The position numbers and the translations under genes are program-made. Below the pieces are notes generated by a model, which saw only the letters and a program-made list of their open reading frames with translations, made no database searches and had not been told where the DNA came from. A stretch of 64,000 bases of DNA from Escherichia coli (lineage in GTDB: Bacteria; Pseudomonadota; Gammaproteobacteria; Enterobacterales; Enterobacteriaceae), in assembly GCF_003018255.1 (NCBI RefSeq), contig NZ_CP027440.1; one strand, given 5' to 3'. Below are positions 13,756-63,898 of this stretch, in pieces; the first letter of the stretch is position 1, and the number at the start of each line of letters is the position of its first letter.

Positions 13756-14835
13756 TTAACTGTTCAAATCAGAAGTCGTATTCCCCGGTAGAACAATATT
13801 ACTGGCAGCAAGTTCGCCCATGTTGTTGTATATCGCACAAGCAGCTTCGATGATGGGCATCGCCAGAGCTGCGCCACTCCCCTCACCTAAACGCATCTCC
13901 ATATTGAGATAAGGCTCCAGCCCCAAATGCGACAGCGCTATACGCGCCCCTTTTTCTGCCGACAGGTGAGAAGGAATGAGATACGGTTTGATTGCAGGAG
14001 ACATCTGGCAGGCTGCGAGCGCAGCAGCATAAGAAAGAAATCCATCCAGCAACACGGGTAAACCGCAGGACGCAGCGCCTAACATCACGCCAGCCATTCC
14101 GACCAAATCAAATCCACCCACTTTTGCCAGGACATCAACGCCATCCTGCGTATTTGGTTGATTCAACGTAATCGCCCGGCGCACAACATCAATTTTATTA
14201 GCCAGTTTATCTGTCGGCAGGTTTGCGCCAATCCCAACCACTTCTTCAGGAGCCCGACCAGTGATTGTGCTCACTATCGCCGCTGCCGGTGTCGTGTTTG
14301 CCATCCCCAATTCACCTACACCAAACAGCGTGACACCGTTTTTTGCCAGATCCCGCGTATAGCATATGACGTCCAAAAGCAACGTTTCAGCCTGACGGCG
14401 ACTCATTGCCGGAGCTGAAGCAATATTGTCGCTACCTCGTGCGACACGCATGTTGATAAGCCCGGGGATAGGCTCAGCAGTATCAATACCAACATCAATT
14501 ACGTGGACGCTAGCGCCCGCTTGTGCTGCCAGCACACACACGCCGGTTGTTCCGCGGGTCATATTTTCAGCCTGAATGGCTGTCACTTCTTTTGGGGAAA
14601 TAGCGACCCCTTCCTCCCAGACGCCGTGATCGGCACACATAACCAGTACCGCTTTTTTGCCCACATGCGGTATGCCATTCAACCCCGGCATTCCCGCCAG
14701 TTGTACGCCAAGCGCCTCCAGCCTTCCCAGGCTACCAACAGGTTTGAGTAACCCGTCAATATGCCGTTGTGCACGCGACATAGCGGCAGGATCGATGGCA
14801 GGGATCGTATTCAGTAAATTGGCAAGTGTTTGCAT
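13756..14835 (-). CDS. cobT: Nicotinate-nucleotide--dimethylbenzimidazole phosphoribosyltransferase
   Basis: 359-aa protein of the CobT family; last gene of the cobUST operon. Confidence 0.9.
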
Positions 14836-50653: not shown

Positions 50654-51634
50654 TTACTTCGCGTTGTAATTACGCAGAGCGTTACGCCCCAGCACAATCC
50701 CCGCGCCAACCATGCCGCCCAGCAGCACTGCCAGAATCAAGGTAATTGCCTTTTTCGGGCTATCGCGACGAATAGGTAACGTCGGTTTCATCACATAACG
50801 GTAAGCATGAATATCAAGATCATCAACCTTTAAGCTTTCGATATCCAGCAGGTTTTGACGTGTCTGATAGTAGTTTGGTGAGAATACCAACGGACGGGTC
50901 GCCTCGTGCTTAATCATCGACTCCAGCGCTTCGCTCCCCAAAAGGAACAACGTATCTTGTGTCACATCTTCAGTCTGCTGAACCTGTGGCTTTGTCACCT
51001 GCGCCTGATTCGCATACTGCAACGCTTCCTGAATCTGACGGATACGCAGATCTTTCTGCTCCTGCGCGACTACTTCCTGAGTTTTCAGAGAATCCTGCAA
51101 GTTTTTCATACGCAGCGCGATGTTGTCTTTCAGGTCTTTTTCCAGTTCTTCGTTTACCTGGTCGTCAACTTGCTGGATATACTTCGCCAGCTGCTTCTGA
51201 GCACCTTCAGGTGTTTCACCAACATAAGACACCGCTAAAGGTAATGACTGATTTTTAACGGTAGGCTCAATGGTCAGCTTTTCTGCTTCTTCCTGATTAT
51301 CCAGCGTTTCCGCTAATGCTGAAAATGCAGTGCTGTAACGTCCGATAAGTGAAGCCTGAATGTCGGAGACTTTCGGTACAGCCGATCCGTAGATCACATT
51401 CATCGCGTTGGTATAACCAGCGATTTGCCCCACATCAGGTTGAGTAACGATAGCTGTGGAAGTCCACTTTTCTTTGGCAACGGCCAGATACCCTATAGCC
51501 AGGGCAATAGCCACAATGACAGAGATGATAATTGTCATCTTGCCACGCCACAACTGCACCAGTAAATCAATCAAATCAATCTGTTCCGGGTCATGGTTTT
51601 GCCCAGAAACATTATTATTTTCTACTCTCATCAT
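50654..51634 (-). CDS. wzzB: O-antigen chain-length determinant (polysaccharide co-polymerase)
   Basis: 326 aa from MRVENNNVSGQNHDPEQIDLIDLL; N- and C-terminal TM segments with a coiled periplasmic domain. Confidence 0.9.
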   Translation of the reverse strand: MMRVENNNVSGQNHDPEQIDLIDLLVQLWRGKMTIIISVIVAIALAIGYLAVAKEKWTSTAIVTQPDVGQIAGYTNAMNVIYGSAVPKVSDIQASLIGRYSTAFSALAETLDNQEEAEKLTIEPTVKNQSLPLAVSYVGETPEGAQKQLAKYIQQVDDQVNEELEKDLKDNIALRMKNLQDSLKTQEVVAQEQKDLRIRQIQEALQYANQAQVTKPQVQQTEDVTQDTLFLLGSEALESMIKHEATRPLVFSPNYYQTRQNLLDIESLKVDDLDIHAYRYVMKPTLPIRRDSPKKAITLILAVLLGGMVGAGIVLGRNALRNYNAK

Positions 51635-51777
51635 TACCCTAACGGACGAAATAATTTTAAGTCGCCATAGTTTAGCGATAATCACCATGAATGCTATAGG
51701 ATAAATGATAAAAAGAATGAATTATTACAAAGGGAACATAAGAGAATCAGGGCGAAAATCGCCCTGATAACAGGATG

Positions 51778-52944
51778 TTAGTCACTGCCAAAGAGATCGC
51801 GGGTGTAGACCTTATCTGCCACATCCTTAAGCTCTTCTGCCATACGGTTGGAAATAATGACGTCGGCTTGTTGTTTGAAGGTGGCGAGATCACGTTCCAG
51901 ACGAGAGTTGAAGAATGAGTCTTCTTTCATCACCGGCTCGTAGATGATCACCTCAACGCCTTTAGCCTTAATACGTTTCATAATCCCCTGAATGGAAGAC
52001 GCGCGGAAGTTATCTGAACCGCTCTTCATAATCAGGCGATAAATACCCACCACTTGCGGTTTGCGTGACAAAATGGCATCGGCAATAAAATCTTTACGCG
52101 TGCGGTTTGCATCGACAATTGCCGAGATCAGGTTATTCGGCACAGACTGGTAGTTCGCCAGTAACTGCTTGGTATCTTTCGGTAGACAATAACCACCATA
52201 GCCAAACGACGGATTGTTGTAATGGTTGCCAATACGCGGATCGAGACAAACGCCTTCGATAATCTGGCGAGTATTCAGCCCTAAACTTTCTGCATAGCTA
52301 TCCAGTTCATTAAAGTATGCTACGCGCATCGCCAGATAGGTATTAGCGAAAAGTTTAATCGCTTCTGCTTCAGTGGAGTCGGTAAACAGGGTTGGGATAT
52401 TTTGCTTAATCGCGCCTTCCTGTAATAACGCCGCAAAACGTTCTGCGCGTTCCGAACGCTCACCGATGACAATACGTGACGGATGAAGGTTATCGTAAAG
52501 GGCTTTACCTTCGCGGAGGAATTCGGGGGAGAAAATAAGGTTATCGATACCCAGACGTTCTTTAATTGATTTGGTGAAACCTACCGGAATTGTAGATTTA
52601 ATCACCATTACCGCGTTGGGATTAATTTCTGTCACATCGCGAATGACCGCTTCCACGCTTGAGGTATTAAAATAATTTGTTTTTGGGTCATAATCGGTAG
52701 GCGTGGCAATAATAACGTAATCGGCATTTTTATACGCGTCATACTTATCTGTCGTAGCGCGGAAATTGAGATCTTTAGTCGCCAGATACTCTTCAATCTC
52801 CTTATCAACAATCGGTGACTGCTTCTTGTTAAGCATGTCCACTTTGGCCTGAACGATATCCAGTGCAACCACTTCGTGGTTTTGCGCAATCAGAATACCA
52901 TTTGAAAGACCAACATAACCTGTTCCTGAAATTGTTATTTTCAT
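51778..52944 (-). CDS. ugd: UDP-glucose 6-dehydrogenase
   Basis: 388 aa from [16 protein letters not shown]. Confidence 0.92.
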
Positions 52945-53142
52945 TAGCTCTGACTTCTTCCGGTTAAACATTTAGAGTGGTCATTAATCCACCACCACAG
53001 CTTCATCTACTGCGGGATTTTTAACGCTGATGTAGATGAACTGTCAAGGCAGCGATCCTGCTGTGCGGCTCTGTATTATATCGCTTTTTTAACCATAAAT
53101 TATAAAAAAAGGCCATAACCTGCCGCTTTGTATAATAAAAAA

Positions 53143-53192: not shown

Positions 53193-54599
53193 TTAATCCA
53201 GCCATTCGGTATGGAACACACCTTCTTTATCAATGCGCTTATAAGTATGCGCACCGAAATAGTCACGCTGTGCCTGGATCAGATTCGCAGGCAAAACAGC
53301 GGCGCGGTAGCTGTCATAATAGGCAACCGCAGCGGCGAATGTCGGAACCGGGATACCGTTCTGCACTGCATAAGCAACGACATCACGCAGCGCCTGCTGA
53401 TAGTCATCGGCGATTTGCTTAAAGTACGGAGCCAGCAGCAGGTTAGCGATCTGCGGATTTTCGGCGTATGCATCGGTGATTTTCTGCAGGAACTGCGCAC
53501 GGATGATGCAGCCAGCACGGAAAATCTTCGCGATTTCGCCGTAGTTCAGATCCCAGTTGTATTCTTCAGACGCAGCACGCAACTGAGAGAAGCCCTGAGC
53601 GTAAGAAACGATTTTGCCCAGATAAAGCGCACGACGAACTTTTTCGATAAACTCAGCCTTATCGCCTGCTGGCTGTGCTTGCGGGCCAGAGAGAACTTTA
53701 GATGCGGCAACACGCTGATCTTTCAGAGAAGAGATATAACGTGCAAACACAGACTCGGTAATCAGCGACAGCGGTTCGCCGAGATCAAGCGCACTCTGGC
53801 TGGTCCATTTGCCCGTACCTTTGTTTGCTGCTTCATCCAGAATCACATCAACCAGGTAGTTACCGTCTTCATCTTTTTTGGTGAAGATATCTTTGGTGAT
53901 GTCGATCAGGTAGCTGCTCAGTTCACCGTTATTCCACTCGGTAAACGTCTGCGCCAGTTCTTCGTTGGAAAGATTCAGGCCACCTTTAAGCAGAGAATAG
54001 GCTTCAGCAATCAGCTGCATATCGCCGTATTCAATACCGTTGTGAACCATCTTCACATAGTGACCTGCACCATCGGCACCGATATAGGTAACGCATGGCT
54101 CACCGTCTTCAGCTACTGCGGCGATTTTGGTCAGGATCGGCGCAACCAGTTCATAGGCTTCTTTCTGCCCACCAGGCATAATGGAAGGACCTTTCAGCGC
54201 GCCTTCTTCACCACCGGAGACACCGGTACCAATGAAGTTAAAGCCTTCGGCAGAAAGCTCACGGTTACGACGAATGGTGTCCTGGAAGAAGGTATTACCA
54301 CCATCAATGATGATGTCACCTTTATCGAGGTATGGCTTGAGGGAATCAATAGCAGCATCCGTGCCTGCACCTGCTTTCACCATTAACAGGATGCGACGAG
54401 GCGTTTCCAGAGATTCAACAAACTCTTTCACCGTATAGTAAGGAACCAGTTTCTTGCCTGGATTTTCGGCAATCACTTCTTCGGTCTTTTCACGGGAACG
54501 GTTGAAAATAGAGACGGTATAACCACGGCTTTCGATATTGAGCGCAAGGTTGCGCCCCATCACTGCCATACCGACGACACCGATCTGTTGCTTTGACAT
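53193..54599 (-). CDS. gnd: 6-phosphogluconate dehydrogenase (decarboxylating)
   Basis: 468 aa ([27 protein letters not shown]...). Confidence 0.95.
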
Positions 54600-54706
54600 T
54601 GTTTACTCCTGTCAGGTGGAAAACTAAATACTTTTAGAGTTAGCGTTATATTAACTGATATCATTTGATGATAGTAGATAATATTATGATAAATACTGAC
54701 TCAGTA

Positions 54707-55723
54707 TCACTCAGAATATCCATTCGGATTTTTATTTTGCCATCTCCAAGCATCAGTAATCATATCCTCAAGTGTACGCTTTGCTTCCCAATGAAGCTCT
54801 TTAATAGCTAAATCTGGTTTTGACCAACATTCAGCGATATCTCCAAGCCTTCGCTCAGAAATAACATAAGGTATTTTTATTCCGGTTATTTTTTGAAAGG
54901 CATCAATAATCTCTTTTACTGAATATCCTTTACCTGTGCCTAGGTTATAATAACGTAACCCACCGTATATATTTTGTTTTTTTAGCGCTGCAATATGACC
55001 TTCCGCTAAGTCCATAACATGTATGTAATCTCTAACTCCGGTGCCATCAACCGTAGGATAATCCCCCCCATATATGGTCAACTTCTCAAGTTTCCCAACA
55101 GCAACCTGTGTTAAATAGGGAAAAAGGTTGCTTGGTACACCATTAGGATCCTCACCAATTAAACCAGAATAATGTGCGCCTACAGGATTAAAATATCTCA
55201 AGCAAGTTGCATTAAATTTAAATTCATAATTGGTTATATCTTCAAGCATTCTTTCAACAATATATTTTGTCGTCCCATATGGATTTGTTGTTCCTCCTGT
55301 ACTGCAATTTTCGTGCACCGGAATAGCTGTAGGATTGCCATATACTGTTGCGGATGAACTAAAAATAAAATTGTAAATTTTATTTTTTAACATCGAGTCA
55401 ATTAAATGCAAAGTTCCAATAACATTATTCTCATAATACTGAATGGGTTTTTTAATTGATTCCGAAACAGATTTTAGCGCAGCAAAATGAATAACAGCCT
55501 CGATATCATTATTTGCAAACACAGAATCAATCAAGTCAATGTTGCGTATATCTCCTTCATATATAATTATTTTCTTAGAAGTCAAATACTCCACTCTTTT
55601 TAAAGCAATCTTTGAAGAGTTACTAAAATTATCAATAACAATAACATCATAGTTATGATTTAAAAGTTGCAATACTGTATGTGAACCAATATATCCTGCC
55701 CCACCAGTCACGAGAACAGCCAT
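54707..55723 (-). CDS. UDP-hexose 4-epimerase (GalE/Gne family) of the O-antigen cluster
   Basis: 338-aa SDR protein with VTGGAGYIGSH and YxxxK; low-GC; next to gnd. Could be a UDP-GlcNAc/GalNAc epimerase. Confidence 0.8.
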   Translation of the reverse strand: MAVLVTGGAGYIGSHTVLQLLNHNYDVIVIDNFSNSSKIALKRVEYLTSKKIIIYEGDIRNIDLIDSVFANNDIEAVIHFAALKSVSESIKKPIQYYENNVIGTLHLIDSMLKNKIYNFIFSSSATVYGNPTAIPVHENCSTGGTTNPYGTTKYIVERMLEDITNYEFKFNATCLRYFNPVGAHYSGLIGEDPNGVPSNLFPYLTQVAVGKLEKLTIYGGDYPTVDGTGVRDYIHVMDLAEGHIAALKKQNIYGGLRYYNLGTGKGYSVKEIIDAFQKITGIKIPYVISERRLGDIAECWSKPDLAIKELHWEAKRTLEDMITDAWRWQNKNPNGYSE

Positions 55724-55756
55724 ACCCTCTCCTTTAAAAACATTTTTTATAAGAAA

Positions 55757-56734
55757 CTATCTGTTTTTTACTTGATACAAGAAATGATAAACTGGAAAGA
55801 ATTTTTTAATCAACAACAAGCGAAACGCATAATACATACCAAAAGCCTGTTCGCAATTCATTTTCTGCTCTATGTTTTTCGGCAAAACTATTTTATTTTT
55901 TTTACATAAAAGGAATATATAAATCAAAAAATCATTGTATCTTTTCTTAAGATAATACTTGACCAATCTATTCTTTGTTGTTTGTATAATACATCTATAG
56001 GTTTTTAATACTTCCAGATAACCAATTATATTGCGAGAGCTAATTTTACTTGTCATTATTGAGTTTTCCCTTACCCTTCGGTAAAAATAAATCTCATCGG
56101 TACAATAACACAACTTAGAATCTAAAATAATCCTAGGTAAGTACTCTTCATCCTCATGAACTATATTTTTAAAAAATGAATTTCGCATTAATAATTCAGT
56201 TCTAAATACATTAATGCAAACAGATGAAAAGTAAGAATTGGTTGAAAATAATCTTTCTAAAAAAACATCACCAGACTTACAAATTTGAAATTTAGTTCGT
56301 TTATATGAAGGAATTTTACCTGCCAAATTAGAAGGGAGCCCTAATATTGATCCTGAAAATGCTATAATGTCTAACTCTTTATAATTAGTCAATATTTCAT
56401 TAATATCCCTTATAAACATTGGACTCAAAGCATCATCAGAGTCAAAAAAATAGACGTATGGTGTGCTAACTTTTGTCAGACCATAATTCCTAGCACTGCT
56501 TAAACCACCATTTTCTTTAGAAAATATCTTATAATTATCCTTACCCTCTATTCTTTTTTTAAGGAGAGGTATCGAATCATCACTAGAACCATCATCCACG
56601 ATGATAACTGAATGTGGTTGCATAGACTGATTTATAATAGAATCTATAGCCTCAACAATATAATCTTGGACATTGTACACAGGCATAACAATTGATATTA
56701 ATTTGGAAATCTCATTTTCTTTTTGGCAAAGCAT
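55757..56734 (-). CDS. Glycosyltransferase family 2
   Basis: 325 aa with N-terminal GT-A motif ISIVMPVYN...VIIVDDGSSD; low GC. Confidence 0.8.
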   Translation of the reverse strand: MLCQKENEISKLISIVMPVYNVQDYIVEAIDSIINQSMQPHSVIIVDDGSSDDSIPLLKKRIEGKDNYKIFSKENGGLSSARNYGLTKVSTPYVYFFDSDDALSPMFIRDINEILTNYKELDIIAFSGSILGLPSNLAGKIPSYKRTKFQICKSGDVFLERLFSTNSYFSSVCINVFRTELLMRNSFFKNIVHEDEEYLPRIILDSKLCYCTDEIYFYRRVRENSIMTSKISSRNIIGYLEVLKTYRCIIQTTKNRLVKYYLKKRYNDFLIYIFLLCKKNKIVLPKNIEQKMNCEQAFGMYYAFRLLLIKKFFPVYHFLYQVKNR

Positions 56735-58145
56735 TGTTTAATAATCCCACAATGGTATTTTTATCAATAATAAACATAAGACAAACATAACTCCCTGCAC
56801 CTATAACGATATAATAAATCAAAGATAATAATTCCATATTATTAGATTGAGTTATAAAATTATTTTTAGCAATCAGTATCAAAATTAGCATGCAAACACT
56901 ACAAAACAAAGGTTTACATGTTATACATAAAATGTTTTTTATGTTACCTTGGAGCAATCTCATGACGTAATAAAAGCAGATGTAAAATATTAATACATTC
57001 GCACAAAGATATAACTGGCAGAATATAACGATATTGAAGCATGCCCCAATAACAAATGACATAACTTGAATTATTGCACTCACACAACCAATCCTTGCCA
57101 GCAACTTAACGTTACCTAAAGATAAAAAAACTACTCCTGTAGTGCTCGTGAGTGCTTGGATAATCCCAACAGGTGCCAACCATTTTAAAAGAAGAGCAGC
57201 ATTATCCCAATTTTTACCAAACAGAAAAAAAACTAACTCGTTACTTAACGAAGCGAGCCCAATCATGGCAGGAATTGACAAAACTGCAATGAACTTTAGC
57301 GAGTCTAAATATATTCTTTTTTTTGTTATAATATCTTTTGAATGACTTAGCTTAGGCAATAAAGCTCTATTAAATATATAAGTTATATTTTGAACTGGAA
57401 ATAACATAAGTCTATATGCTAATGCATAATTACCTAAAACATACTGCCCAAAAATTTTTCCAACTATAATATTATCAGCGTTACGTGAGAAATAATTCAC
57501 CATATTAAATGACATTACATTAACACAATAGCCAAATATTAATTTTATATATTTCATCCGCCAAGAAAATTTATATTTTCTTCTATTTTTAAGGCTCAAT
57601 AAAAAAACAACAATAACTGCATACAAAAGGGCCTGTAGAGACACAGCATAAAGTCCAAAGCCCATGGCAATTACTATAAAAACAACAATGATTGAAATCG
57701 ATAATGATATCAACTCTATGAGAGCAGTAATATTGAACTGTTGGTTTCGTTCTAATAAAGCAAAATTAAAAGCAATAAAACTTTGTAAAGGAAATGAAAA
57801 AGAGATGATCAATATTAATAGAAACAACCTTGTGTCATTGTAAAAAAGGGATATTGGATAAGCTAATAATGTCATTACGATAAAAATAACGAGACCGCTT
57901 ATAAAGTTTAATGTGTATGTGGATTTAATAAAATTTTCACTTATTCTTCTCCGTTGAATTAATATTGATGACGTCCCCATATCTCTAAAGAGCATGGCAA
58001 ATGCAGCCACTACGCTTACAATGGAAATCAAACCATAGTCATAAGGCGTTAAATAACGAGCCAGTACAAAGATCAAAACTAATTGGCTCAGAGCTCTTGC
58101 AATTTGAGATAAAGCGACCCATTTTACTCCTGTTATCAAAAGCAT
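56712..58145 (-). CDS. wzx: O-antigen flippase Wzx (MOP superfamily)
   Basis: 477-aa polytopic protein with about 12 predicted TM segments, typical Wzx size and hydropathy; low GC. Confidence 0.75.
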   Translation of the reverse strand: MLLITGVKWVALSQIARALSQLVLIFVLARYLTPYDYGLISIVSVVAAFAMLFRDMGTSSILIQRRRISENFIKSTYTLNFISGLVIFIVMTLLAYPISLFYNDTRLFLLILIISFSFPLQSFIAFNFALLERNQQFNITALIELISLSISIIVVFIVIAMGFGLYAVSLQALLYAVIVVFLLSLKNRRKYKFSWRMKYIKLIFGYCVNVMSFNMVNYFSRNADNIIVGKIFGQYVLGNYALAYRLMLFPVQNITYIFNRALLPKLSHSKDIITKKRIYLDSLKFIAVLSIPAMIGLASLSNELVFFLFGKNWDNAALLLKWLAPVGIIQALTSTTGVVFLSLGNVKLLARIGCVSAIIQVMSFVIGACFNIVIFCQLYLCANVLIFYICFYYVMRLLQGNIKNILCITCKPLFCSVCMLILILIAKNNFITQSNNMELLSLIYYIVIGAGSYVCLMFIIDKNTIVGLLNNALPKRK

Positions 58146-58152
58146 TTTATTA

Positions 58153-59049
58153 TTATCTCACTCTTTTTTTAAAATGGTTTTCATAAACTTTTTGCTTCAA
58201 ATATATAATGCCAGGGAACGCTCTTTTGAGTAGCAACTTAGTTGCAAATAATGTCCAGTATTGTTTTTTTGCTATAAAAGAAAATATAATTTTAATTTTT
58301 AAACATCTTAACATCATTAACCTAAACAGGTTATAATTCTTTGTATCATTGTACATTATATTCTTATATTTAAAATAATACTTCCGATATGCCACATAAT
58401 CTTTAATATTCTTGGTTATTCTAACACCTTCATGAGAAATATCCATATAGTAAGTATTAGCGTTTAACCTCCTGGCACTCCCATAAACTTGAATAAGTTT
58501 AGTCCAAACATCTTGATCTTGTAACCGTTTAAAATCAATAGAAAATCCTCCAACTGATAACAAACGCTCTCGCTCAACTAAAATCTGGTTACCAGCTTCA
58601 TTTTCCTTGAGTATACTTTGTAAATCAATGATACATTCTCTTTGAAATCGTGCATGATTATTTGTTCCAGTCACTATTATATAGTTATCGCAGATAAAGG
58701 AAAATTCCTTGTTATAATGATTAACCAGAATCTGTAACCTATCTTCTTTGAAATAATCATCATCATCCAACCCTGTAATGAAGAAACCTTTTGCATGCTT
58801 TAATCCTCTATTTCTAGAAAAATTAGCCCCCATATTTCTTGGGTTTTTCTTATATATAAAATTCTTAATATTTGGTGTTGCTACTTCTTGCAATTCTTTT
58901 ACAATCAAGTCAACTTCATAACTAGAGTTATCATCGACTACGATTAATTCTATTTTTGAATAAGTTTGATTAAATACTGATAATATTGCTCTGCGCAACA
59001 GCAAAGGGCGATTATAAGATGTTATAAGAACGCTTACTAATTTTTCCAT
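58153..59049 (-). CDS. Glycosyltransferase family 2
   Basis: GT-A motif VSVLITSYNRP...IVVDDNS; probable start MEKLVSV, with the listed ORF extended. Confidence 0.8.
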   Translation of the reverse strand: MEKLVSVLITSYNRPLLLRRAILSVFNQTYSKIELIVVDDNSSYEVDLIVKELQEVATPNIKNFIYKKNPRNMGANFSRNRGLKHAKGFFITGLDDDDYFKEDRLQILVNHYNKEFSFICDNYIIVTGTNNHARFQRECIIDLQSILKENEAGNQILVERERLLSVGGFSIDFKRLQDQDVWTKLIQVYGSARRLNANTYYMDISHEGVRITKNIKDYVAYRKYYFKYKNIMYNDTKNYNLFRLMMLRCLKIKIIFSFIAKKQYWTLFATKLLLKRAFPGIIYLKQKVYENHFKKRVR

Positions 59050-60407
59050 TTCTTTTTCAAAACCATCAACAAAGTAATTATAACCAAAGAATAGATCCAC
59101 AGCGGGAATATGCCATTAAGCCCTGCTCTTGGTAAAAAGCCTATCCTATATGCTGTTATAACTGATAATGCAGTAATATAAAGCCCCTTAGAGTTACCTC
59201 TATTTTCTGCTAAACTTAAAAACACCCCAAATAAGCAAGCAACAATAATCATAGCTCCAACATTTTTATTACACAGCAAAACTATATCATTGACAAAACT
59301 CCAGCCAACACCATAACCACTTTTGAATAACGCTGGATTTAATAAATCGGATAGATACGCAGAAGAGCTATTGTATAATATAGTGTGTTCTGCAAACATG
59401 TTATATATAGCATTAGCTCCAGGGATAAAGTTTTGAGCTAATAAATAGCCAGGAAAATTATCTATATATTTAGTGAAATAGATGACATGTAATGTCACTC
59501 CTTGTTGAAATAAGAATGAGAAGTAATGTTCGAACAAATTTATATTTGAATTACTATAATCCGCTCTAAATAATAACAATGTTTGGGAGAAAACTATAGC
59601 AATACCACCTATTATAACTAACCTAAGGAGGGGTATTTTCTTAATGTACTTATTTCTATACCAAAGATAAAATAAAAAGAATGATAATAATGGACCTCGC
59701 TGACCGATAAAAGCCAACATTAAAGAGTTCATCAATAAAACGCACAGATAAAAATTAGTGTTCTTTTTATTGTCAGTTGATATTGATATAGACAAAAAAA
59801 CAGTCGCTATCGTAATTCCTAAAGAATAAAGATTTGGTATAATACTTCCTTTCTCCAATAATTCTAAATTTTTTGTATAAAATGAAAGATATCCGCCTGA
59901 ATTTACTGCCTCTAAACCTGAATATATATATGGAAAAACAAGGCAACCGACCAAAAATAAAACTGGTCCATTAGGCAACCTCAGATTATATGTTACTACA
60001 TTGACGTTTTTATTCTTATTTTCAATACACTGAGTAAAAAAATACCCTAAAAGAATTGAATATATTATTATCCCAATCGTCAATAACAAATTCACAGAAT
60101 CAAGTGAACTTATAGTCGTGGTATAAAAAAGCGTTACTGTATAGTAATCCATTTCAGAGTATAATAAATATGAAAATATGCGCCCAAAAATAAATATACT
60201 TATTGTCATTATAAAAAGCGATATTATGCTTAGTACCCCTGATAAAAGTGCCGTTTGTAAATATGCAAATGCTATAAATAAAAAACAACTTATTGCTAAT
60301 GTGTAATAGTCAACACTAACAAAACCGGCCTCATTTAATAAATAACCAACAATAAAAAAGGCAATAATAATAGAATCGACGAATACTATTATCGCAGAAT
60401 TATTCAT
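59037..60407 (-). CDS. wzy: O-antigen polymerase Wzy
   Basis: 456-aa very hydrophobic, AT-rich polytopic protein with about 10-12 TM segments, typical of Wzy. Confidence 0.7.
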   Translation of the reverse strand: MNNSAIIVFVDSIIIAFFIVGYLLNEAGFVSVDYYTLAISCFLFIAFAYLQTALLSGVLSIISLFIMTISIFIFGRIFSYLLYSEMDYYTVTLFYTTTISSLDSVNLLLTIGIIIYSILLGYFFTQCIENKNKNVNVVTYNLRLPNGPVLFLVGCLVFPYIYSGLEAVNSGGYLSFYTKNLELLEKGSIIPNLYSLGITIATVFLSISISTDNKKNTNFYLCVLLMNSLMLAFIGQRGPLLSFFLFYLWYRNKYIKKIPLLRLVIIGGIAIVFSQTLLLFRADYSNSNINLFEHYFSFLFQQGVTLHVIYFTKYIDNFPGYLLAQNFIPGANAIYNMFAEHTILYNSSSAYLSDLLNPALFKSGYGVGWSFVNDIVLLCNKNVGAMIIVACLFGVFLSLAENRGNSKGLYITALSVITAYRIGFLPRAGLNGIFPLWIYSLVIITLLMVLKKKWKN

Positions 60408-61177
60408 TTTATTTTTTCCATAAAAAATATCATAAGCCGATAAACAAAGTAGTATAAAGACATTACCATTATTAATAGACTAAGCTCAGAAAGGCTATTT
60501 AAGTATACACATAATGAGGTAAAAAAAATAAAAAGATAATAGCGGCATCTTAACAATGAATGATTTTTAAATAACTCTCGCTGAAAATAATACAACTCAA
60601 ATCTTTTCTCACCACACCTCTCGATCACATTTATAATTGAGAAACATATTGTAAATATTATTATGCTACGCAAATCCCCTGTACAAACAACTAATGGTGA
60701 AGAGTACCTGATTGTAACTAATATAAAATGCAATAAAAGATTTAATCGATTTCTTATTGAATTATATATCGCATACATCGGGATAAGTAACCATGGATAC
60801 CAGAGAAACTCTCCACCTAACTTGTAAACACAAAAAGTGACAACAACAGATACAAATAATCTAAAGATATATATTGTCTTTTTATTACCCTCATAATAGC
60901 GTATTTCTTTTTCAGAAAGCCGCAGAGTAGGTTTTATTTCTTTTTTTATTGTTTCTGCATCATTGTAGATATATCCTAATTCATACAGATTATATGTTAG
61001 TACTATAGTTAATCCCAGTTGCCCCCATAACTCAACACTCTCTTTAGTGCTTTCAAATAAAAAAAACAGCAACAAAACTGGAAATAGATAAATTAGGCAC
61101 CAAGAAATTGTTTTAGCACGCGTTTTAGTTCTTGTTTCAATAAAATATAAAAATGGGATATAAAATTTGCACCACAT
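60404..61177 (-). CDS. Polytopic membrane protein of unknown function (O-antigen cluster)
   Basis: 257-aa hydrophobic protein; start overlaps the stop of the upstream gene by 1 nt (translationally coupled). A weak NDxxTxxxE segment resembles but does not match the UbiA-family NDxxDxxxD motif. Confidence 0.5.
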   Translation of the reverse strand: MWCKFYIPFLYFIETRTKTRAKTISWCLIYLFPVLLLFFLFESTKESVELWGQLGLTIVLTYNLYELGYIYNDAETIKKEIKPTLRLSEKEIRYYEGNKKTIYIFRLFVSVVVTFCVYKLGGEFLWYPWLLIPMYAIYNSIRNRLNLLLHFILVTIRYSSPLVVCTGDLRSIIIFTICFSIINVIERCGEKRFELYYFQRELFKNHSLLRCRYYLFIFFTSLCVYLNSLSELSLLIMVMSLYYFVYRLMIFFMEKIK

Positions 61178-61178
61178 A

Positions 61179-61784
61179 CTACACCTTAATTATTTTTTCA
61201 ATGCCATTTCTTACCCAATAAACAACTGCTTTTTTATTATTAGCCACAGCTATGGCCACATCGCATTTTTTCATCATATTAAGATCACCAAAATTATCAC
61301 TTATCATTGTGAATGATTTATTAACATCACTAATTATATTTATAATATTTTCCTTATTATTTAATAAATCCACTTTTATCTTCCCAGTTGCAACACTATC
61401 AAGATAATCCAAGCAAGTAGCATAAAAACCATTATAGTTAAGTTCTGAATAAAACTCTTCCGCGATGAAATCAAGCGTTGCTGAAACTATATATATCTCA
61501 TCAAAATCTTCCTTTTCAATTAAATTTAATACCGCGTCATTATAATGGCATTCTTTCACAAATATTTTAGCTTGTTTTCGCAGTATAGTTTTGGGAACAC
61601 CTTTAAGTTTTGCTATTGCCCAGCGCCTTAAAAGATCAAATTTCGTGAATTTATAAATTAAATATAAAGAAATAAAAATAAGAGATTTCCTTCTGACATA
61701 ATCAAATCGTTCAAGAAAAGCAAAAGTCGTATTTTCTTTAACCAAAGATCCACATAGATCCAATAATAGAATTTTTTTCTTCAT
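61179..61784 (-). CDS. HAD-superfamily hydrolase-like protein (O-antigen cluster)
   Basis: 201 aa; N-terminal LLLDLCGSL resembles HAD motif I (DxDG[TS]L) but has Cys at the Asp+2 position. Confidence 0.5.
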   Translation of the reverse strand: MKKKILLLDLCGSLVKENTTFAFLERFDYVRRKSLIFISLYLIYKFTKFDLLRRWAIAKLKGVPKTILRKQAKIFVKECHYNDAVLNLIEKEDFDEIYIVSATLDFIAEEFYSELNYNGFYATCLDYLDSVATGKIKVDLLNNKENIINIISDVNKSFTMISDNFGDLNMMKKCDVAIAVANNKKAVVYWVRNGIEKIIKV

Positions 61785-62599
61785 TTGCGTAAGAACTGAT
61801 TATAGATAGATGATAATAATTGTTTAGGTAATAGCCTGACTAATGAACGACCTAAAAATATTAATTTTGCACTTACCCCTTTATTAATGCCTAAATCAAC
61901 AATAAGTTTATAAAGTTCATATTCACTTTTGATATATTTTAATCCTTTTCTTCTATTGATCATTTCTTCGCCGGCACGTGCTAAAACTAATACATCATTA
62001 ACATTATCCATAGCGAAACCTGCGGCATAACAACGAAGCCACAAGTTATAGTCTTCCATAAGATAATGGTGGTTATAACCACCAATCTCAATAATTTTTT
62101 GTTTTCTAAACATTACAGTCATGTGATTAAAAGGATTTCGTTTTGCTATTGTTTTACTAATATTATCATAACCACATGGTACTTTTTTTAATTTACGTAT
62201 ATTGTTTTTTTCTGTAAACTCATCAACTGCCCCGCCAATTATTACTAATTCCGGATTACGAATAAACATCTTTATTTGTTTTTCGAATCGCTCAGGTAGA
62301 CAAATGTCATCAGTATCCATTCGTGCGACCAAATCATTCGAACATGCCTGTAGGCCAGCATTTAATGCCTTACCTAATCCAACATTCTCATTGAGTTCAA
62401 CTATTTTTAAAGGCAATTCTCTATCCCATTTTCTAACTACTCTCCATAATCCATTACTGATCGGACCGTCAATAACTGCAACTACTTCATCGATCATTGT
62501 TTTTTGTATCGCAAGACTTTTAAATGCCTCATCAAGATAAATTTCGTTTTCTTTAAAATATATAGATAATAAAACTGATATTTTTTCTATCTTTTGCAC
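61781..62599 (-). CDS. Glycosyltransferase family 2 (first gene of the O-antigen operon)
   Basis: 272 aa; GT-A-like N-terminus ISVLLSIYF...; the only in-frame start is a GTG at 62597-62599 that lies inside the ops element; contains a DTDD motif. Confidence 0.7.
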   Translation of the reverse strand: MQKIEKISVLLSIYFKENEIYLDEAFKSLAIQKTMIDEVVAVIDGPISNGLWRVVRKWDRELPLKIVELNENVGLGKALNAGLQACSNDLVARMDTDDICLPERFEKQIKMFIRNPELVIIGGAVDEFTEKNNIRKLKKVPCGYDNISKTIAKRNPFNHMTVMFRKQKIIEIGGYNHHYLMEDYNLWLRCYAAGFAMDNVNDVLVLARAGEEMINRRKGLKYIKSEYELYKLIVDLGINKGVSAKLIFLGRSLVRLLPKQLLSSIYNQFLRK

Positions 62600-62635
62600 G
62601 CTACCGCCCTTGGCTTAACAGCTACCAACACACTC
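62597..62635 (-). promoter_or_regulatory. JUMPstart element with ops (RfaH recruitment) site
   Basis: Minus-strand GGTAGCTGTTAAGCCAAGGGCGGTAGCGTG; exact 12-bp ops GGCGGTAGCGTG at 62597-62608. Confidence 0.85.
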
Positions 62636-62759
62636 AAAAACCAATGCCACATTATTTAAATACTTGTTAATATTTAAAAAACTAAGACGATAATGAGAAA
62701 ATGCTTCATAATTTTCATACTACCGCCTATTTCCGCTATTAAACTAACGCAAATCTTAC

Positions 62760-63653
62760 TTATTTTAGCAAAGTATCTTCAATAGCTTTACGGAACTTCG
62801 CCCCTTCTTTCAGGTTGCGTAATCCATACTTCACAAACGCCTGCATATAGCCCATTTTTTTACCACAGTCGTAGCTGTCACCAGTCATCAGCATGGCATC
62901 AACGGACTGTTTTTTCGCCAGTTCGGCAATAGCATCAGTCAGCTGAATACGCCCCCATGCACCAGGTTGAGTGCGTTCAAGTTCCGGCCAAATATCGGCA
63001 GAAAGCACATAGCGACCAACGGCCATGATGTCTGAGTCCAGCGTCTGCGGCTGATCCGGTTTTTCGATAAATTCGACGATGCGGCTGACTTTACCTTCGC
63101 GATCCAGTGGTTCTTTGGTCTGGATGACGGAGTATTCAGAGAGGTCACCCGGCATACGTTTTGCCAGCACCTGACTGCGGCCCGTTTCGTTGAAGCGCGC
63201 AATCATGGCAGCAAGGTTGTAGCGCAGCGGGTCGGCGCTGGCGTCGTCGATCACTACGTCTGGCAGTACCACGACAAATGGGTTGTCACCAATGGCAGGT
63301 CGCGCACATAAAATGGAGTGGCCTAAACCTAAAGGTTCACCCTGACGCACGTTCATAATGGTCACGCCCGGCGGACAGATAGATTGTACTTCCGCCAACA
63401 GTTGACGCTTCACGCGCTGCTCAAGGAGAGATTCTAATTCATAAGAGGTGTCGAAGTGGTTTTCGACCGCGTTCTTGGACGCGTGAGTTACCAGGAGGAT
63501 TTCTTTGATCCCTGCAGCCACAATCTCGTCAACAATGTACTGAATCATTGGCTTGTCGACGATCGGTAGCATCTCTTTGGGAATCGCCTTAGTGGCAGGC
63601 AACATATGCATCCCAAGACCTGCTACCGGTATAACTGCTTTTAAATTCGTCAT
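62760..63653 (-). CDS. galF: UTP--glucose-1-phosphate uridylyltransferase-like regulatory subunit
   Basis: 297 aa ([30 protein letters not shown]...). Confidence 0.92.
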
Positions 63654-63898
63654 TATTTTCCTACCTCTAAGTGGCTGATAGTGCGTAAATTATTGCCATA
63701 GGTTAGCCAAACGTTATGGCTATATACCAAAGCTTAGTTCCGCATAACTTTGATTAAACCTTGCGATAACACTACACACCATCAGCATCTGGGTTACTCG
63801 GATTACTCGGAAATCCACATACTGATAATTTAATCAGTACCTCTTTCCGAATAATCGTAGTCCAACCTGGTCCTTTTTTCTCTGACTCGTCTGCATTA

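Follow-up and report, generated by a model that had tools for sequence, protein, structure and literature searches.

The gene cluster for the O antigen, with its serogroup

The DNA analysed here is a 64,000-nucleotide stretch of an Escherichia coli genome (contig NZ_CP027440.1, assembly GCF_003018255.1), referred to below as the window. Between gnd and galF it carries eight contiguous, intact open reading frames (ORFs) on the minus strand, several of which overlap by 4 nt (Table 1). NCBIfam profiles and further analysis identified three family 2 (GT2) glycosyltransferases (GTs), the O-unit flippase Wzx, the O-antigen polymerase Wzy, a Gne-type epimerase and two proteins, WbuN and WbuO, whose possible role in the addition of D-ribofuranose (Ribf) is the subject of this report. 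We propose, with a probability of about 60%, that in the cytoplasm WbuO transfers ribose-5-phosphate from phosphoribosyl pyrophosphate (PRPP) to the lipid-linked O unit and WbuN then strips off the 5-phosphate.

The block, taken from the outer limits of its first and last ORFs (54707 and 62599), has a GC content of 0.302, compared with 0.495 in the window's first 50 kb. All 500-nt segments from 54500 to 62999 lie between 0.27 and 0.38, and the flanks between 0.41 and 0.59. The original prediction, made from the sequence alone, had described an AT-rich block of glycosyltransferases, wzx, wzy, a GalE/Gne epimerase and two unassigned genes, and this description was confirmed, for its composition by the GC values above and for its genes by NCBIfam and the NCBI annotation pipeline PGAP. 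It had also noted that one epimerase was the only nucleotide-sugar pathway gene; an NCBIfam profile scan likewise found no rml-, man-, fcl- or gmd-type enzyme in the block.

The serogroup, which the original prediction could not assign from the sequence, is O185. In a megablast comparison with 5,426 complete E. coli genomes, the block matched six, with 98.5–98.8% identity and 97–100% query coverage, and PGAP annotates 'O185 family' wzx and wzy in all six. In two of them (H5 and H6) the match came in two pieces covering 97% of the block, with a 'NAD-dependent epimerase/dehydratase family protein' at the position annotated galE in the other four. All eight proteins are intact relative to the O185 reference genome (strain MB06172), with 97.8–99.7% amino acid identity (98.7% for Wzx and 99.6% for Wzy), and WbuO is 100% identical to UniProt A0A0A8J7Q1 ('WbuO [E. 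coli]'). Its sequence identifies the block as the Wzx/Wzy O-antigen gene cluster of E. coli O185, already known from the set of Iguchi et al. (2015); locus, gene order and sequence are alike, and no structural difference was seen. Nucleotide identity to MB06172 is 98.5–99.0% in the cluster genes but only 96.1% in gnd, 96.6% in galF and 94.2% in wzz (94–96.6% over gnd, galF, ugd and wzz). The greater divergence of the flanks indicates exchange of the O locus, with the O185 cassette residing in different chromosomal backgrounds.

Ribofuranose in O antigens and the wbuN–wbuO pair

D-Ribf occurs in nine E. coli serogroups, O185 among them, and neither its donor nor its biosynthesis genes were known when these structures were reviewed (Liu et al., 2020; PMC7685785). 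With D-Ribf listed for O185, the original prediction of an O unit limited to Glc, Gal, GlcNAc and GalNAc is not supported. An O unit made solely from housekeeping UDP-sugars, with the two orphan genes irrelevant to it, would account for the lack of nucleotide-sugar pathway genes beyond the epimerase; we give it almost no credence, given the report of D-Ribf in O185 (PMC7685785) and the state of the two orphan genes, which are intact, 98% conserved and tightly packed with their neighbours. The overlap between the first GT2 gene and wbuN is 4 nt, as is that between wbuO and wzy, and 1 nt separates wbuN from wbuO. On the review's listing, O185 needs a sugar outside the predicted set, which comes near the refuting case named with the original prediction, an O group with sugars beyond the cluster's means; here, though, the cluster itself probably supplies the sugar through the two orphan genes and PRPP. 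No pathway gene for Ribf is visible because PRPP is a housekeeping metabolite and not a nucleotide sugar. The original prediction had allowed for a modification by the two genes; most likely they contribute a backbone sugar and not a decoration.

PRPP has since been identified as the Ribf donor in two systems (PMC11127046, PMC11294581). The first consists of soluble, dual-domain gPRT-PRP(HAD) transferases, in which HAD denotes a haloacid dehalogenase-type phosphatase, that add β-Ribf in the cytoplasm (PMC11127046, PMC11294581). The second forms α-linked side chains in the periplasm and comprises ORF15, a MATE flippase and a GT-C glycosyltransferase of family GT136 (Kelly et al., 2024; PMC11127046). 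In ORF15, a PRP is joined to a polyprenyl-phosphate phosphoribosyltransferase of the UbiA family, and residues N247, D248, D251 and D255 are required for activity; further 'outlier' PRP groups were mentioned in the same work (PMC11127046).

The names wbuN and wbuO were first used for E. coli O114; according to a 2010 paper, WbuO had no known domain and its function was not determined (PMC2905691). The E. coli O5 cluster has the order rmlB-rmlA-fdtA-fdtC-fdtB-wzx-wzy-wbuM-HAD-wbuO-amsE (PMC4309606), and in Hafnia alvei PCM1222 a HAD gene stands next to an 'acyltransferase' gene, the O antigen contains Ribf, and the cluster is one GT short (PMC4869667). The pair is thus present in O5, O114 and PCM1222, and Ribf is found in all three. 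O5 is also one GT short; according to the 2020 review, the same holds for O153 and O178, 'with no obvious explanation' (PMC7685785). In a PGAP-annotated genome typed as O5 we found exactly two GTs, a HAD gene and a 784-nt unannotated gap that holds an intact WbuO ORF of 264 aa.

The position of Ribf in these O units bears on where it is added. The O114 unit is ->3)-α-GlcNAc-(1->4)-β-Qui3N(acyl)-(1->3)-β-Ribf-(1->4)-β-Gal-(1-> (PMC10609480), and O5ac holds β-Quip3NAc-(1->3)-β-Ribf (PMC9912281). In both, β-Ribf is a backbone residue bearing the next, dTDP-derived sugar (PMC10609480, PMC9912281). A backbone β-Ribf that bears a sugar from a cytoplasmic dTDP donor must itself be added on the cytoplasmic face, to an intermediate linked to undecaprenyl pyrophosphate (Und-PP). 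No extra GT-C and no second flippase was found in the clusters of O185, O5, L002, L004, L038 and L057–L059, and none recurred consistently across the 52 loci described below. In the enterobacterial and Pasteurellaceae clusters inspected, the polytopic proteins besides WbuO were Wzx and Wzy only.

Ribf in O185 might instead come from a canonical soluble gPRT-PRP encoded outside the cluster, with WbuN and WbuO serving some other role in polysaccharide assembly. The 2020 review says that the clusters do not contain the Ribf genes (PMC7685785), Kelly et al. (2024) could explain all β-Ribf examined by the earlier PRPP enzymes (PMC11127046), and our view is limited to 64 kb of the genome. Within the window there is no second HAD matching the WbuN profile and no other WbuO-like protein, and the pair tracks both the Ribf serogroups and the missing GT of O5 and PCM1222. 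In E. coli, moreover, O-unit-specific transferases normally lie inside the galF–gnd locus. On balance, an outside gPRT-PRP is decidedly unlikely.

Two more E. coli O clusters contain the pair (L002/L003 and L057; H7–H12). They have the order galF-HAD-wbuO-wzy-wzx-GT4-GT2-gnd and are assigned no serogroup by PGAP; 10 complete genomes carry one of the two. Both are predicted to make Ribf-containing units of four residues. The papers that describe the pair do not connect WbuN or WbuO with ribose. Literature searches returned no functional assignment for WbuO, WbuN or WdbZ, with Kelly et al. (2022) outside their reach. Although the cluster is known, the mechanism of the pair appears to be undescribed.

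WbuO, a membrane protein with a predicted UbiA-like fold

WbuO has no match among Pfam, NCBIfam or PDB sequences, either directly or with family profiles. Its modelled fold is UbiA-like, and the best structural match among membrane proteins is decaprenyl-phosphate phosphoribosyltransferase (DPPRS), a PRPP-using enzyme. A word-indexed search detected 25 relatives, and an exhaustive profile search detected 903 representative clusters at E <= 1e-3. The family numbers more than 900 sequence clusters, which are spread over the bacteria and include at least one archaeon.

Among 141 diverse members of the family, Y65, Y69, N72, N139 and R210 are invariant, and E66, D73, E80, P83 and R86 are kept in 140. 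By the positive-inside rule, the conserved residues lie on K/R-rich cytoplasmic loops or helix ends. They form the putative active-site pattern Y69-x-x-N72-D73...E80...R86, Y138/N139, R142 and R210, which resembles in kind and spacing the PRPP site of DPPRS, consisting of Y70, N73, D77, Y138 and a K/R cluster (PMC10994848). The pattern also resembles the N247/D248/D251/D255 motif of ORF15.

PGAP leaves an intact wbuO uncalled in both genomes inspected, one of O185 (L001, 10307–11078; NZ_CM129887.1) and one of O5 (L066, 9096–9880; NZ_CP110511.1). Where these ORFs of 255–264 aa go uncalled, the O-antigen cluster seems to have a gap of about 780 nt. In AFDB, relatives carry the names WbuO, WdbZ, 'putative O-antigen acyltransferase', 'Wzy' or 'prenyltransferase'. 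We considered and rejected the labels acyltransferase, serine transferase and Wzy for WbuO, as they come from databases without supporting evidence.

Such names ('O-antigen acyltransferase', 'serine transferase') would suit a pair that adds a non-sugar substituent, and in the work on Hafnia the pair was proposed to take part in forming Rha3(PEtN)4Ac (PMC4869667). WbuO, however, has a UbiA-like fold and resembles none of the acyltransferase families, and acyl transfer leaves no role for a phosphatase partner. O5 has the pair although neither an acyl-serine nor a phospho substituent is present on the O5ac backbone segment given in PMC9912281. The seryl group of O114 is on Qui3N, whereas the pair is also found in clusters that lack Qui3N genes, including O185 and L002. 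Addition of a substituent is accordingly very improbable.

WbuN, a HAD phosphatase

WbuN has a phosphoserine-phosphatase-like fold and the features of HAD subfamily IB: motifs I–IV, a Rossmannoid core and a C1 cap. The nucleophilic Asp is retained, as are Ser, Lys and Asp in the other motifs, and D9 is present in all 30 sequences aligned. Its nearest relatives are phosphoserine phosphatases, and the gPRT-PRP structure 7SHG was not detected among its matches. A word-indexed search with the HAD protein gave two relatives only; the HAD partners were therefore taken from the loci around wbuO.

Gene linkage of the pair

Linkage was scanned in one genome per species, which gave 52 loci, and the HAD gene was placed relative to the transmembrane (TM) gene with custom hidden Markov models. 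The loci span Proteobacteria, Bacteroidota, Firmicutes, Spirochaetes, Campylobacterota, Pelagibacter, a methanogen and a bacterium of the candidate phyla radiation. The HAD gene lies immediately upstream of the TM gene on the same strand in 45 loci and is fused to it, as HAD(N)-TM(C), in three, so that the two are adjacent or fused in 48 of the 52. In three further loci the HAD gene is 174–1177 nt upstream on the same strand, and in one it is absent. P0089 is an additional HAD-TM fusion, whose N-terminus shares 29% identity with the HAD of O185 (E = 3e-14).

A different fusion was found at L036 (8002–9963), where an N-terminal GT4 (GT-B) domain is joined to a WbuN-type HAD directly upstream of wbuO. 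Full-length homologues with the same C-terminal HAD and 34–41% identity occur at L033 (363–2036) and L040 (8106–9929). These three proteins, of 557–653 aa, come from Paludibacteraceae-type metagenome-assembled genomes (MAGs), and all lie directly upstream of wbuO. The fusion ties the phosphatase to cytoplasmic Leloir glycosyltransfer.

Other genes of the O185 cluster travel with the pair to varying degrees. Homologues of the AmsE-like GT2 (35–51% identity) are found in 21 of 55 WbuO loci from several phyla (for example L004, 8743–9585; L006, 10764–11591; L014, 10762–11601), and most start less than about 100 nt past the end of wbuO. Over the same 55 loci, the other two O185 GTs each have a match in only two (about 25–28% identity), Wzx has four weak matches (about 21–27%), two of them to the colanic-acid WzxC, and the O185 Wzy has no homologue. 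This pattern indicates that the conserved unit is a two-gene core, often extended to a three-gene cassette. The AmsE-like GT2 may make the β-Gal acceptor for Ribf, which would predict a β-Ribf-(1->4)-β-Gal linkage in O185.

Two of the loci call for comment. L005 (NZ_JAGHEW010000383.1, 4746 nt), assigned to 'Thomasclavelia sp. MAG.139', has wbuN and wbuO about 98% identical to those of O185 and a 456-aa polytopic ORF at the position of wzy. The contig almost certainly belongs to E. coli and was wrongly binned into a Firmicutes MAG that serves as species representative. L038, from Citrobacter youngae, was considered as the published ORF15 system and rejected, as it is a Wzx/Wzy cluster with separate HAD and WbuO proteins. 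Nucleotide searches with the C. youngae module returned nothing useful in E. coli.

The order of the two genes also fits a split version of the Citrobacter ORF15, in which WbuO would use PRPP to make ribose-5-phosphate linked to undecaprenyl phosphate (Und-P), WbuN would dephosphorylate it, and the product would be flipped and used in the periplasm by a GT-C encoded elsewhere. DPPRS is the best membrane-protein structural match of WbuO, the HAD(N)-TM(C) order of ORF15 PRP-PPPRS recurs both in gene order and in natural fusions, and some family members are automatically annotated as UbiA prenyltransferases. Set against the missing GT-C and second flippase, and against a backbone β-Ribf that points to the cytoplasmic face, this route, the main rival to our proposal, is unlikely.

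Other features of the locus

Table 1. Features of the O185 O-antigen locus and its flanks, with positions in the window
Feature	Position	Strand	Supporting annotation
gnd (flank)	53193..54599	-	
Gne-type UDP-hexose 4-epimerase (predicted), 338 aa	54707..55723	-	NCBIfam NF007956, 445.7 bits (cut-off 394); TIGR01179
GT2 glycosyltransferase c, 325 aa	55757..56734	-	GT-A/GT2 matches, all under equivalog cut-offs; PGAP 'glycosyltransferase family A protein'
wzx, O-unit flippase, 477 aa, ~12 TM	56712..58145	-	NF007773 MOP flippase, E=1e-63; PGAP 'O185 family O-antigen flippase'
GT2 glycosyltransferase b, 315 aa (GTG start)	58153..59100	-	WcaA-like GT2 matches; PGAP 'glycosyltransferase'
wzy, O-antigen polymerase, 456 aa, ~10 TM	59037..60407	-	TIGR04370, weak; PGAP 'O185 family O-antigen polymerase'
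wbuO, 257 aa, 8-helix membrane protein, predicted UbiA-like fold	60404..61177	-	
wbuN, 201 aa, HAD-IB phosphatase	61179..61784	-	NCBIfam HAD-IB match, sub-threshold
AmsE-like GT2 glycosyltransferase a, 272 aa	61781..62599	-	EpsE-like GT2 match
JUMPstart with ops, 39 nt, near-canonical	62597..62635	-	Exact ops GGCGGTAGC at 62600-62608, at the end of JUMPstart
galF (flank)	62760..63653	-	

The epimerase is 51% identical to the GalE of K-12 in a gapless alignment, with Cys299 in place of the gatekeeper Tyr299. By analogy with the GalE Y299C mutant and with C307 of human GALE, a Cys at this position is expected to confer activity on UDP-GlcNAc/GalNAc. The enzyme is predicted to act on these substrates because of its Cys299, and thus to be Gne-type (group 2) and to supply UDP-GalNAc, in line with the GalE/Gne call of the original prediction. 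The O185 Wzy belongs to CAZy class GT134, and two or more candidate polymerase linkages have been given for this serogroup (PMC10920833 and its supplement). The multiple candidates may be read as several N-acetylhexosamine (HexNAc) residues, which would fit a Gne-type epimerase. In the reference genome L001 (NZ_CM129887.1), gnu, which encodes an Und-PP-GlcNAc 4-epimerase, lies just past galF at 13795–14790. Its counterpart here would lie beyond position 63896, and the window stops before most of it; should this strain have gnu, its O unit could start with GalNAc.

The JUMPstart element at 62597–62635 reads GAGTGTGTTGGTAGCTGTTAAGCCAAGGGCGGTAGCGTG, close to the consensus for such elements, which are associated with RfaH. 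Its last triplet, GTG at 62597–62599, is also the start codon given to glycosyltransferase a by both the ORF finder and PGAP, and no in-frame ATG, GTG or TTG occurs within about the next 12 codons. Glycosyltransferase a is the counterpart of 'amsE' in the clusters of E. coli O5 and Salmonella Pomona O28. The PGAP form of glycosyltransferase b is shorter than the ORF (298 versus 315 aa). Outside the cluster, a 391-aa ORF antisense to gnd (53211–54386, plus strand) is a mechanical artefact, and the listed ORFs of ugd (51778–52971, minus strand) and wzzB (50654–51688, minus strand) begin upstream of the annotated starts (397 versus 388 aa and 344 versus 325 aa respectively).

Proposed route of ribofuranose addition in O185

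In the proposed route, WecA, encoded elsewhere, would start the unit on Und-P, and the three GT2 enzymes would add hexose and HexNAc from UDP-sugars, with UDP-GalNAc supplied by the Gne-type epimerase. The Ribf of O185 would be installed by wbuN and wbuO. WbuO would bind PRPP and transfer ribose-5-phosphate to a sugar hydroxyl of the Und-PP-linked intermediate, inverting to a β linkage. WbuN, encoded immediately upstream of wbuO, would remove the 5-phosphate, so that the next glycosyltransferase or Wzy could continue. The finished unit would be flipped by Wzx and polymerised by Wzy, with transcription running through the JUMPstart/ops element. The GT4-HAD fusion of L036 and its homologues in L033 and L040 are compatible with such a cytoplasmic assembly line. 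PRPP as the donor, the glycan in place of Und-P as the acceptor, and the phosphorylated product as the substrate of WbuN are the parts of the route that we infer.

Several points weigh against this assignment. The relation of WbuO to UbiA is structural only: hmmsearch against PDB sequences gave nothing, Pfam UbiA (PF01040) matches none of the 141 members at E <= 1e-3, and hhalign of the 141-sequence profile was not significant, with E = 0.87 against E. coli UbiA and 0.11 against a UbiA/MenA/CyoE alignment. The alignment places N72-D73 of WbuO on the ND motif of UbiA at these non-significant E values. A search seeded with UbiA, MenA and CyoE returned near-identical enterobacterial proteins only and so gave no diverse UbiA/DPPRS profile. 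The NDxxDxxxD motif is incomplete in WbuO, as the Asp at +4 is Thr in 120 of the 141 sequences and never Asp, while E80 stands at +8 in 140. In motif I of WbuN (D-x-C-x-T), the Asp+2 general acid/base is replaced by Cys (residue 11) in 29 of 30 sequences. No biochemical or genetic test of either protein was found in the readable literature. Finally, O185 is not among the serogroups listed as one GT short in the 2020 review (PMC7685785); the case for O185 depends on homology with O5 and O114 and on the review's listing of Ribf.

Broader significance

Neither the gPRT-PRP nor the three-component system is encoded in the clusters of O185, O5 or O114, and the assignment of WbuN and WbuO, if correct, would close the Ribf gap for at least these three serogroups. 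It would also correct a wide misannotation of WbuO as acyltransferase, serine transferase, Wzy or prenyltransferase, and would provide a sequence marker predicting ribofuranose in the glycans of many phyla. The three genes would form a transferable cassette for glycoengineering of Ribf-containing antigens. The further view that WbuO founds a new family of membrane-embedded, PRPP-using glycosyltransferases of UbiA fold that ribosylate a lipid-linked glycan directly, and that with the D-x-C HAD WbuN it makes up a third, independent Ribf route specialised for backbone β-Ribf in Wzx/Wzy units, is in our judgement an even bet. WbuO would then be the first enzyme of UbiA type to act on a carbohydrate, and the UbiA scaffold would have been re-used for glycan ribosylation.

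Comparison with known systems

Among the closest counterparts of the O185 genes are the wbuM-wbuN-wbuO-amsE modules of O5, O114 and S. Pomona O28, which contain a homologous pair (WbuO 38–46% identical) and an AmsE-like GT2 within Wzx/Wzy clusters for Ribf-containing O antigens. The O185 cluster differs from them in having no dTDP-Qui3N genes, in having the AmsE-like GT upstream of the pair and not downstream, and in encoding three GTs instead of two.

Among the PRPP systems already described, the pair plausibly performs the same two-step chemistry. For the gPRT-PRP enzymes (Kelly et al., 2022; 7SHG; Klebsiella O4/O7, Salmonella T1 STM0726 and the Hib capsule), the proposed likeness extends to the PRPP donor, the cytoplasmic transfer of β-Ribf-5-phosphate and dephosphorylation by a HAD domain. 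In contrast to these enzymes, WbuO is an 8-TM, UbiA-like membrane protein and does not have the soluble gPRT fold, and WbuN is a phosphoserine-phosphatase-like HAD with D-x-C that is not detectably close to 7SHG; the two activities would also reside on separate polypeptides. Mycobacterial DPPRS (Rv3806c; 8j8j) is 13% identical to WbuO and has decaprenyl phosphate as its acceptor, and its phosphatase partner, Rv3807c, belongs to a family unrelated to WbuN.

Like the three-component system, the pair links a HAD phosphatase with a UbiA-type membrane protein, the N-to-C order is the same, and PRPP is the expected substrate of the membrane protein. The pair differs in having no linked flippase or GT-C (GT136) and no match to Pfam UbiA, and the NDxxDxxxD motif is only partly kept in WbuO. 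The type of Ribf also differs: the residue associated with the wbuN–wbuO pair is β-linked and part of the backbone, whereas the ORF15 system forms an α-linked side chain.

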